From a virus: a stretch of 64,000 bases of DNA. This document shows, piece by piece, positions 9,353 to 14,335 of this stretch. The DNA is taken from the IMG/VR virus record IMGVR_UViG_3300024581_002111, positions 14,309 to 78,308 of that record. The stretch is one strand, 5' to 3'. The first letter of the stretch is position 1; every line of letters starts with the position of its first letter. The notes beneath the pieces were generated by a model, which saw nothing but the letters and a program-made list of their open reading frames with translations, searched no databases and was not told the DNA's origin. A program made the position numbers and the translations under genes.

Positions 9353-9370
9353 GTTGTCTTACCTGAAAGT

Positions 9371-9393
9371 TTGGGGGCATATTCTGCCCCCAA
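9371..9393. terminator. Perfect 9-bp GC hairpin between hsp20 and clpS (terminator or 5' stabiliser)
   Basis: TTGGGGGCA-tattc-TGCCCCCAA. The U-tail is weak. Confidence 0.5.
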
Positions 9394-9396
9394 GAT

Positions 9397-9404
9397 TATT
9401 TATA
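9397..9404 (-). promoter_or_regulatory. Late promoter for clpS
   Basis: TATAAATA. Confidence 0.7.
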
Positions 9405-9406
9405 TT

Positions 9407-9874
9407 CTAAGAGATCGAAATCTTCTTAGGCTTGGCTTCCTCTGGAACGTTCAAGAATAAAACAATCTTGAGTATGCCGTCTCTGAGGGTAGCTGTTTGT
9501 ACTTCCACGTGCTCTGCAAGTCTGAAAGTTCTCTGAAAGTTTCTTTCTGCAATGCCTTTGTGAATGTACTCTACAGTGGAGTTAACATCTTCTGCTAACA
9601 CCGCACTACGACCTTCCACTTTGAGATGCTTGTCTTCTACAGTGATTTCAATATCTTCCTGCGTGAAGCCTGCAACTGCAAGTGTGATCTCATACGTTTG
9701 AGCTTCGGTTTCTTTGTCGGTAACACGAGCAACATTATACGGAGGATATCCGCTTGCGCTGATGTTAACTGGATTGGTGAACATTTCGTCGAACAATCTG
9801 TCAAAGCCGACGCTCATTTTATATAGAGGTGAGTTTAAAAGGTCAGTGGTGACCCTGAGTTGTTTGCTTGTCAT
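9407..9874 (-). CDS. hsp20: Small heat-shock protein (IbpA-like Hsp20)
   Basis: VGFDRLFDEM, YPPYNV, LAVAGF, YIHKGIAERNF, LRDGIL...PEEAKPKKISI. Confidence 0.95.
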   Translation of the reverse strand: MTSKQLRVTTDLLNSPLYKMSVGFDRLFDEMFTNPVNISASGYPPYNVARVTDKETEAQTYEITLAVAGFTQEDIEITVEDKHLKVEGRSAVLAEDVNSTVEYIHKGIAERNFQRTFRLAEHVEVQTATLRDGILKIVLFLNVPEEAKPKKISIS

Positions 9875-9948
9875 AATAATCTCCTTAGTTAAGCAAGTTA
9901 TTTTAATGTAACATCTAGTAATACCCTATCGGCATATTACCTGTTACA
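9870..9948 (-). promoter_or_regulatory. ROSE-like RNA thermometer in the hsp20 5' UTR
   Basis: Minus strand AAUAACUUGCUU-AACU-AAGGAGAUUAUU-AUG: UUGCU pairs with the SD leaving a bulged G. An upstream long hairpin spans 9907-9948. Confidence 0.65.
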
Positions 9949-9952
9949 GTTT

Positions 9953-9960
9953 TATTTATC
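9953..9960 (-). promoter_or_regulatory. Late promoter for hsp20
   Basis: GATAAATA overlapping the stop of the upstream gene. Confidence 0.7.
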
Positions 9961-10264
9961 ACTCAACGAATAGGGCCTCATCCATTTTCTCGGCTTTTAA
10001 TCGAGTTTTAGGCAAGGTCCACACATGTTGAGCAACAAAATCTCTGTAGTCTGCATCTGTGTCAAACAGTGCAAACACCTGAATAGTCATACCCCATTGT
10101 TTTGGATCTTCGGGATATCTTACTTCAAATTCTACGTGGGCATCAGTATCTTCTGCCCACTGCCAATATGGCTTTAGTGTGTTGTGGATGCCATTTTCGG
10201 TCATCCATTCGTAGTCAGCATTGTCGCTTACCACACTGTCAATGATCTTATATTCTTTACGCAC
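9959..10264 (-). CDS. Hypothetical protein
   Basis: Operonic ORF overlapping its neighbours. Confidence 0.6.
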   Translation of the reverse strand: MRKEYKIIDSVVSDNADYEWMTENGIHNTLKPYWQWAEDTDAHVEFEVRYPEDPKQWGMTIQVFALFDTDADYRDFVAQHVWTLPKTRLKAEKMDEALFVE

Positions 10265-14185: not shown

Positions 14186-14335
14186 TTAAAAAGAATGGAT
14201 ATACAAGAACCAATTAATAAGTGCGATCAAACCTGCTTGCATGGTCACTGCTCCTAACACCACACAAGTGGGGAAAATTGCATTAGCCTTTGCAGGGTTG
14301 TCTTTGACCCATTGTTCAAGTTCCTTCTCTGTCAC
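14186..14335 (-). CDS. 49-aa single-TM protein (not in track)
   Basis: GTG start: MTEKELEQWVKDNPAKANAIFPTCVVLGAVTMQAGLIALINWFLYIHSF. Confidence 0.55.
   Translation of the reverse strand: MTEKELEQWVKDNPAKANAIFPTCVVLGAVTMQAGLIALINWFLYIHSF

Follow-up and report, generated by a model that had tools for sequence, protein, structure and literature searches.

ROSE-type RNA thermometers are described for bacterial genes, chiefly the small heat-shock genes of alpha- and gammaproteobacteria. Among them, the leaders of the Pseudomonas ibpA genes are validated short ROSE-like thermometers, in which a 5′ untranslated region (UTR) of 61–62 nucleotides (nt) folds into two hairpins (Krajewski et al. 2013, PMC3669281). 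When probed experimentally, hairpin I of these leaders remains closed, and hairpin II melts in the range of 25–42 °C; a sigma-32 promoter lies upstream (PMC3669281). The element considered here is the leader of an hsp20 gene carried by a virus. It lies in a 64,000-nt stretch of DNA (the window), positions 14,309 to 78,308 of IMG/VR record IMGVR_UViG_3300024581_002111, in which a sequence-only reading had proposed a ROSE-type thermometer behind a late promoter. With a probability of roughly 0.7, we take this 74-nt leader to be a short, two-hairpin ROSE-like translational control element that is homologous to the Pseudomonas ibpA thermometer (ROSE_3 type). The assignment is carried by direct observations, namely the anatomy of the leader, the degree to which it is conserved, covariation in hairpin I and at one pair between the Shine-Dalgarno (SD) sequence and its anti-SD, and the reciprocal detection of phage and Pseudomonas leaders.

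The leader of the phage hsp20 gene

The leader stands directly before an open reading frame (ORF) for 155 amino acids (9874–9407; PF00011, E = 3.5e-17), the only hsp20 gene present, whose AUG occupies 9874–9872. Every feature of the leader is on the minus strand, and coordinates are window positions. In order of transcription, the region comprises a promoter-like box, GATAAATA (9960–9953), which matches the T4 late type at seven of eight positions and has a G at the variable first position; hairpin I (9948–9907), a stable 5′ hairpin of −12.5 kcal/mol at 37 °C when folded alone; an A/U-rich, single-stranded linker of 4 nt (9906–9903); and hairpin II (9902–9875), the presumed sensing hairpin, in which UUGCU lies opposite AGGAG and which is followed by the AUG at 9874. 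The box, the long hairpin and the SD hairpin reaching to the AUG are all found on this strand where the sequence-only reading had placed them, and the structure predicted by RNAfold is identical to the one it had drawn.

Hairpin I contains 15 pairs beneath a bulged G9933, a 3-nt bulge at 9916–9914, and two apical pairs, formed by C9932 and C9931 with G9925 and G9926, that close a GAUA loop. Its tip (9934–9924) reads U9934, the bulged G9933, CC, GAUA, GG and G9924. Hairpin II is composed of a lower stem (AAUAA/UUAUU), the anti-SD UUGCU (9896–9892), an AACU loop and the SD sequence AGGAG (9885–9881), and its predicted free energy when folded alone is −2.5 kcal/mol at 37 °C and −7.8 kcal/mol at 10 °C. 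Its core can adopt two registers of almost the same energy, one with G9894 facing G9883 and one with G9894 bulged between a U9895·G9883 wobble and C9893–G9884. In either register G9894 is non-paired, and its deletion in silico gives a hairpin II of −5.7 rather than −2.5 kcal/mol at 37 °C. Both geometries are known from solved ROSE motifs, the G·G pair by nuclear magnetic resonance and the bulged G by crystallography (PMC11342760).

Taken as a single sequence, the leader rises weakly above chance; the z-score of the whole-leader fold is −2.24, and 5 of 200 shuffled sequences fold equally well. The arrangement UUGCU-gap-AGGAG-gap-ATG is present once in the window, with 0.12 expected. One sequence would leave chance standing as an explanation, and it is the location before the sole hsp20 gene, together with the conserved compensatory changes described below, that lifts the element above it.

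The only cellular relatives of the phage Hsp20 found among genomes sampled at one per species are Pseudomonas IbpA proteins (42–46% identity) and the product of a single 8.7-kb contig from a metagenome-assembled genome (75%). That contig (JAAERX010000103.1, referred to as L082), binned as a member of the Gammaproteobacteria, is the nearest relative and has a TATAAATA box ahead of its leader. L082 is probably a phage contig that was binned with its host and, if so, hints at a gammaproteobacterial host.

ROSE_3 (RF02523) is the only Rfam family that matches the leader, and this is its only match in the 82-kb contig that contains the window. The match spans the full model (9941–9869) and scores 18.4 bits, with an E value of 0.52 in a 1.1-kb search and of 0.009 for the contig. 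ROSE_3 scores are graded, from 40.6–58.4 bits for Pseudomonas ibpA leaders through 35.6 bits for L082 to that of the window leader. An Rfam scan of the whole loci of 20 relatives (64 kb, E ≤ 5) returned no ROSE match, the search space and filters being too large where small searches succeed. No second copy of the leader was found in the 82-kb contig, so the element is specific to hsp20.

Conservation across phage lineages

A search with the Hsp20 protein yielded 80 IMG/VR loci, the upstream regions of which represent 51 distinct leaders. The sequence-only reading had staked its case in part on conservation of the pairing between UUGCU and the SD sequence, and U(U/C)GCU is observed 19–26 nt before the start codon in 41 of the 51. 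The anti-SD is invariant within the window's clade. Nearly all leaders have a preceding hairpin, the stem of which varies by lineage and the tip of which has the form N-G-CC-N4-GG-G.

Hairpin I is not alignable by MAFFT across lineages; the leaders, trimmed by predicted fold, were aligned by Infernal to a seed restricted to the window's clade (A4), giving alignment A5. Standard pairs occupy 91.9% of the cells of A5, compared with 71.2% in shuffles and 45–57% when pairing partners are slid, and changes on both sides of a pair are found in 149 cells, a value that none of 500 shuffles reaches, compared with 49.8 in the control. Five stem positions of hairpin I display four or more pair types, and, of 38 rows, C-G is found in all at one tip pair and in 36 at the other. 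Between the second position of U(U/C)GCU and its SD partner, U-A is present in 24 rows and C-G in 16, a compensatory exchange that links the anti-SD to the ribosome-binding site. A5 was fitted to the model and favors structure, a concern that is limited for hairpin I by the slid-partner control and by an independent RNAalifold prediction, in which hairpin I is recovered with compensatory changes in 9 of 11 pairs.

Nine leaders, all from the window's own clade, were used to build a covariance model, R1. Run against 270 kb of loci, R1 gives 48 matches (E ≤ 1), all of them on the gene strand and ending at the start codon of hsp20 or ibpA. These include other phage lineages (E values from 5e-5 to 0.6) and nine Pseudomonas loci (19.9–23.7 bits); the Salmonella ibpA leader is not detected by R1. 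Since R1 finds Pseudomonas loci and ROSE_3 finds the window leader, each model detects members of the other. The proposed ROSE-type identity gains support from the fact that both hairpins are common to the phage leader and the validated Pseudomonas ibpA thermometer.

Variation in this architecture is also seen. The leaders of three IMG/VR loci (L067, L069 and L071) are about 80 nt long and have three hairpins, the additional GCGG...CCGC hairpin being located between hairpin I and the sensing hairpin; they recall the three-hairpin ibpA leaders of enterobacteria. Variant anti-SDs are observed in L053, L057, L058, L062, L065 and L066, in L028 and in L078 (UGUGCUC/GGAGGCA, CUGCC/GGAGG and UUGUC/GGAGAC), and these leaders keep the unpaired G and the hairpin I tip.

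With R1, leaders were also found before hsp20 in cultured phages: Pelagibacter phage Mosig (48 bits; L112, 336–406), Ralstonia phage RsoM2USA (37.5 bits; L111, 353–418), the OM43 phage Melnitz-3, a Methylophilales phage (34.4 bits; L113, 310–370), Agrobacterium phage Atu_ph07 (26.7 bits; L108, 312–379), Pelagibacter phage HTVC115P (23.2 bits; L110, 295–358), Phage C48C1, for which the record gives no host (19 bits), and, marginally, Prochlorococcus phage P-SSM4 (14.2 bits, E = 0.2). The first five of these carriers are usable experimental systems. By eye and by folding, a GAUGCC-type tip followed by UCGCU opposite the SD sequence was recognized 60–80 nt before hsp20 in the cyanomyoviruses P-SSM4, S-T4, S-SM2, S-RSM4 and P-RSM1 (L114 and L116–L119, in that order), a group in which hsp20 is a core gene. 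To our knowledge, ROSE elements have not been described for the cyanobacterial hosts of these phages. No report of a ROSE-type element in a phage or virus was found in the open full-text literature, the coverage of which is partial, such that absence is not proof; the paper on the Melnitz genome scanned for riboswitches only.

Promoters, temperature and competing readings

The box upstream of the leader is one of a set. In the window, GATAAATA is present 13 times (2.64 expected) and TATAAATA 13 times (2.45 expected), each about five-fold over-represented, and these late-type boxes are located mostly 21–60 nt before ORF starts. In T4 late promoters, transcription starts one helical turn past a TATA box of 8 bp, the first position of which is variable (PMC2988020). 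Similar to these promoters, the candidate box before the leader is 8 bp long and of the TATA type, lies about one helical turn before the predicted start, has no −35 element and is over-represented before genes in the contig; it has a G at the first position (−13), the position that varies in the T4 type. No sigma-70-like site was found upstream of hsp20 on its strand, and the sigma-32 boxes CTTGAAA/CCCTA are absent before the window leader, with GATAAATA there instead. A hairpin at the transcription start as a general feature of late-type boxes was considered and rejected: strong 5′ hairpins are not general after the late-type boxes of the contig, and the mean fold after them is weaker than background.

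The gap between a preceding (N)ATAAATA box and hairpin I is 0–8 nt in at least 12 distinct related leaders, and in the T4-like phages Mosig and Melnitz (Kyanoviridae) a perfect TATAAATA is found 2–3 nt before this hairpin. In other phage lineages the same place is taken by TTGACA or TTGCAA, 17 nt and TATAAT (TTGACA-17-TATAAT in HTVC115P), and Pseudomonas leaders have sigma-32 CTTGAAA...CCCTA boxes upstream. Judged by these motifs, the promoter before the leader is of one of three types: late-type (N)ATAAATA, sigma-70 or sigma-32. The conserved position of the box, combined with the change of promoter class, argues, short of proof, for two conclusions: the box acts as a promoter, and the leader is a promoter-independent module kept through promoter exchange. 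The earlier suggestion that a late promoter has replaced sigma-32 control fits this pattern. From the box we infer a transcription start near 9947 and late timing.

Positions 9846–9939 attract a pile-up of contigs, which come from four RNA libraries of four studies. The hairpin II core is common to many contigs that otherwise differ, and the GCC-N4-GGGU tip is carried by several of those with a listed upstream continuation. It follows from the pile-up that relatives abound in such libraries, but not that the hsp20 gene of the window is transcribed; as the data are contigs, no transcript start, strand or level is readable from them, and uncovered stretches are meaningless.

As we envisage the element, transcription would start about 6 nt past GATAAATA, from a T4-type late promoter, and the stable hairpin I would cap the 5′ end of the transcript and aid folding or mRNA stability. 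In the cold, the weak hairpin II would hide the ribosome-binding site by pairing UUGCU with AGGAG, with a non-paired G and a U·G wobble, and warming would melt this helix and free the site. Because the phage helix is predicted to be 2–4 kcal/mol weaker than the Pseudomonas ones, its set-point should be lower, which would suit a marine host; the modeled weakness would be in line with control that is leaky or set to colder temperatures. By analogy with E. coli IbpA, a second input is likely, in that the leader may be bound by its own protein product, the phage Hsp20, which unfolded proteins would then draw off.

Folding predictions for the leader plus 30 nt of coding sequence give an unpaired AGGAG of 0.16 at 0 °C, 0.36 at 15 °C, 0.55 at 25 °C and 0.70 at 37 °C. 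Compared with 59 SD-bearing starts in the contig, accessibility of the hsp20 SD sequence at 5 °C is in the lowest fifth, and its predicted opening between 5 and 37 °C (+0.44) is above that of 97% of 59 other such starts. An estimate of the temperature at which half of the chains are open gave meaningless values (58–110 °C) and was dropped.

Several observations weigh against a ROSE-like thermometer at this locus. The same folding keeps the validated Pseudomonas thermometers closed at 42 °C, and because the method fails on validated elements, the in silico temperature curve proves neither direction. In a warm host, hairpin II (−2.5 kcal/mol at 37 °C) may, according to the model, be too weak for any repression, and for a phage whose infection cycle takes hours in a sea of stable temperature, the need for a heat sensor is not obvious. 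The expected match to ROSE models was obtained in part: ROSE_3 matches over its full length, but its curated gathering cut-off is 43 bits, far above 18.4, and neither ROSE (RF00435) nor ROSE_2 (RF01832) matches the leader at E ≤ 10. The expected covariation is likewise divided, being found for hairpin I and for the U/C position of the anti-SD and being modest for the lower stem of hairpin II, where, with flanks swapped among lineages, 29 of 2000 permutations are as good. This lower stem is present in most leaders, but its register shifts among relatives, and hairpin II is not predicted by RNAalifold on the alignment. With respect to the promoter, a search for T4 gp55 gave no match either in the 82-kb record (completeness, 24%) or in five related ones (18–39%), a null that is uninformative given fragments and sequence divergence. 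In addition, contigs from RNA libraries cross the predicted transcription start (X16, 9858–10017; X17, 9681–10012; X8, 9924–10113), which may reflect read-through from upstream or carry-over of DNA into the libraries.

The competing reading that survives best, a minority view that we nevertheless regard as a real possibility, is that the leader is mainly a self-repression operator, to which Hsp20 oligomers would bind until they are titrated by unfolded or assembling proteins. The signal would then be the folding load of virion assembly, with temperature playing a minor part, and such an operator could coexist with a thermometer. There is precedent in the IbpA proteins of E. coli, Cedecea and Vibrio, which repress their own translation by binding a ROSE-type 5′ UTR (PMC10474464; PMC10410725). 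For RNA binding by IbpA, R93 is irreplaceable and an aromatic residue is required at position 34, and neither is needed for chaperone activity (PMC10474464). Similar to the IbpA system, the mRNA of the phage protein has a ROSE-type leader, and alignment places R111 (GIAERNF) at R93, Y43 (GYPPYN) at Y34 and R115 at R97. The K98 position, however, is occupied by T in the phage protein (residue 116) and by L in Pseudomonas, and binding of the leader by the phage Hsp20 is putative. The R93-equivalent arginine is kept in all aligned phage lineages except L013–L025, which have K in its place yet retain the leader, and as R93 is general in alpha- and gammaproteobacterial IbpAs, its retention may be plain ancestry. 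The tip of hairpin I, invariant from Pseudomonas to cyanophages on stems that vary, suits a recognition site better than mere stability, but any tie between this tip and IbpA binding is speculative. To a phage in stable seawater, load sensing would presumably be worth more than heat sensing.

A wider proposal, which we think unlikely, would make the leader a dual-input operator rather than a heat sensor, a portable two-hairpin module of hsp20 long kept by several phage families with promoters alone being swapped, and it would cover jumbo phages, T4-like cyanophages, and phages of SAR11 and OM43. The bulged Gs of the tip and of the SD helix would be recognized by the R93-equivalent of Hsp20, output would track the load of unfolded virion proteins, and pairing of the anti-SD with codons 2–4 would constitute a bistable switch in the window's clade.

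That last pairing, taken by itself as a two-state switch, is more doubtful still. AAGCAA in codons 2–4 (9869–9864, minus strand) is a perfect 6-nt complement of UUGCUU (9896–9891) and a possible alternative partner for it, such that UUGCUU would pair either with the SD sequence (off) or with AAGCAA (on), the balance being shifted by temperature or by the first ribosome. When 30 nt of coding sequence is included, the best predicted fold hides the SD sequence at or below 15 °C and is the alternative at or above 20 °C. Codons 2–5 are identical in nucleotides in the five closest relatives, compared with a synonymous codon match of 25–65% further in; AAGCAA persists in L004–L010 in another reading register, and the independent lineages L013/L025 and L056 have AAAGCA(A) at +13. 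Yet codon-shuffle probabilities per lineage are 0.02–0.23 among relatives that are not independent, the complementarity is missing in UCGCU-type phage leaders and in Pseudomonas, A-rich early codons are favored for initiation anyway, and validated ROSE elements act as zippers. A role for AAGCAA as an alternative partner of the anti-SD is a hint only, drawn from modeled folds.

It is very improbable that the leader is baggage acquired with a captured bacterial ibpA gene, at most a stabilizing 5′ hairpin with no regulatory role. The nearest cellular relatives of the protein are indeed IbpAs with this leader, and hairpin II is very weak, but the leader has been kept across phage families in which protein identity falls to about 35%, promoters are exchanged and stems are rebuilt by compensation. 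Such long-term conservation with compensation argues for purifying selection on the structure and the anti-SD, as a relic would have decayed. The classical T4 gene e/soc-type device, in which a hairpin silences early read-through and an internal late promoter gives an open late mRNA, would account for the RNA-library contigs that cross the box but can be set aside, as the box is upstream of both arms of both hairpins and the late mRNA would retain the full SD-hiding hairpin.

Gene neighborhood and comparison with known systems

The IMG/VR record that contains the window is 82,265 bp long, and with a CheckV completeness of 24% it is a fragment of a phage of about 340 kb. Immediately upstream of hsp20, a 101-codon ORF on the minus strand ends in a TGA stop (9961–9959) that overlaps GATAAATA. 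Downstream are clpS (9352–9056, minus strand) and a class-V aminotransferase of the cysteine desulfurase type. Between the hsp20 stop and clpS, on the same strand, 9370–9404 contains a TATAAATA box (9404–9397) and a G+C-rich hairpin of 10 pairs (9394–9370), the strongest fold after any late-type box of the contig (−16.6 kcal/mol); this region probably marks where the hsp20 mRNA ends, where a late clpS mRNA begins, or both.

Searches of 20 large ORFs against PHROGs and Pfam returned auxiliary genes only (ribonucleotide reductase, UvdE, methyltransferases and proteases), with no virion or late-transcription marker among them. The window represents a region of auxiliary genes, among them those for ribonucleotide reductase, UvdE, two methyltransferases, ClpX, ClpS, the desulfurase and a reprolysin-like peptidase. 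The close carriers of the leader (G000 and the records of L002, L003, L006, L011 and L072) are all fragments, 61–153 kb in size and 18–39% complete, which implies a jumbo-phage clade of roughly 340–410 kb. Sequencing runs that contain 23–39% of the sampled words of the locus are labeled as seawater, marine or estuary metagenomes, and blastn of the locus against isolated phages gave no match.

What the phage leader offers is a new setting for a known type of element, a viral gene with a late-type promoter, and not a new class of mechanism. It provides a concrete candidate mechanism by which a phage could dose a chaperone during infection, an example of a regulatory RNA that would travel as a module independent of its promoter, and natural candidate thermometers with very weak, A/U-rich sensing helices that are perhaps tuned to cold water.

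Phage RNA thermometers have a precedent in lambda cIII, in which structure in the 5′ UTR gates translation with temperature. A fourU element of blyA in the Bacillus prophage SPbeta is likewise a virus-encoded 5′ UTR structure that gates translation by temperature (PMC10586365). Neither is ROSE-type or located on a chaperone gene, and their motifs and genes are unrelated to those of the phage hsp20 leader. The ROSE-like thermometers of ABC-transporter genes share UUGCU, and in the crystal structure the bulged G is located between a U·G wobble and a C-G pair (PMC11342760), a geometry that equals one of the two registers of the phage core (U9895·G9883, G9894, C9893–G9884). These elements are bacterial, belong to another gene class and have no hairpin I tip motif. 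Bradyrhizobium ROSE1 (RF00435) and the ibpA leaders of E. coli and Salmonella have the same U(U/C)GCU, with a non-Watson-Crick G opposite the SD sequence, in the 3′-proximal hairpin, but they contain three or four hairpins and longer sensing stems, unlike the phage leader.

The closest resemblance is to the ROSE_3 leaders of Pseudomonas ibpA. Both consist of a UTR of about 60–75 nt before an IbpA-type gene, with two hairpins joined by an A/U-rich linker. In both, the stable hairpin I has a tip composed of U/C, a bulged G, CC, a loop of 4–6 nt, GG and G (GAUGCC...GGGUC), the labile hairpin II sets U(U/C)GCU against AGGAG with an unpaired G, and the start codon is placed either at the helix foot or immediately beyond it. 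The main differences are that the phage leader is viral and has a late-type GATAAATA box in place of the sigma-32 promoter, that its hairpin I is A/U-rich, with 15 + 2 pairs compared with about 11 G+C-rich pairs in Pseudomonas, and that its hairpin II lacks the G-C clamps that flank the SD/anti-SD core of the Pseudomonas thermometers.

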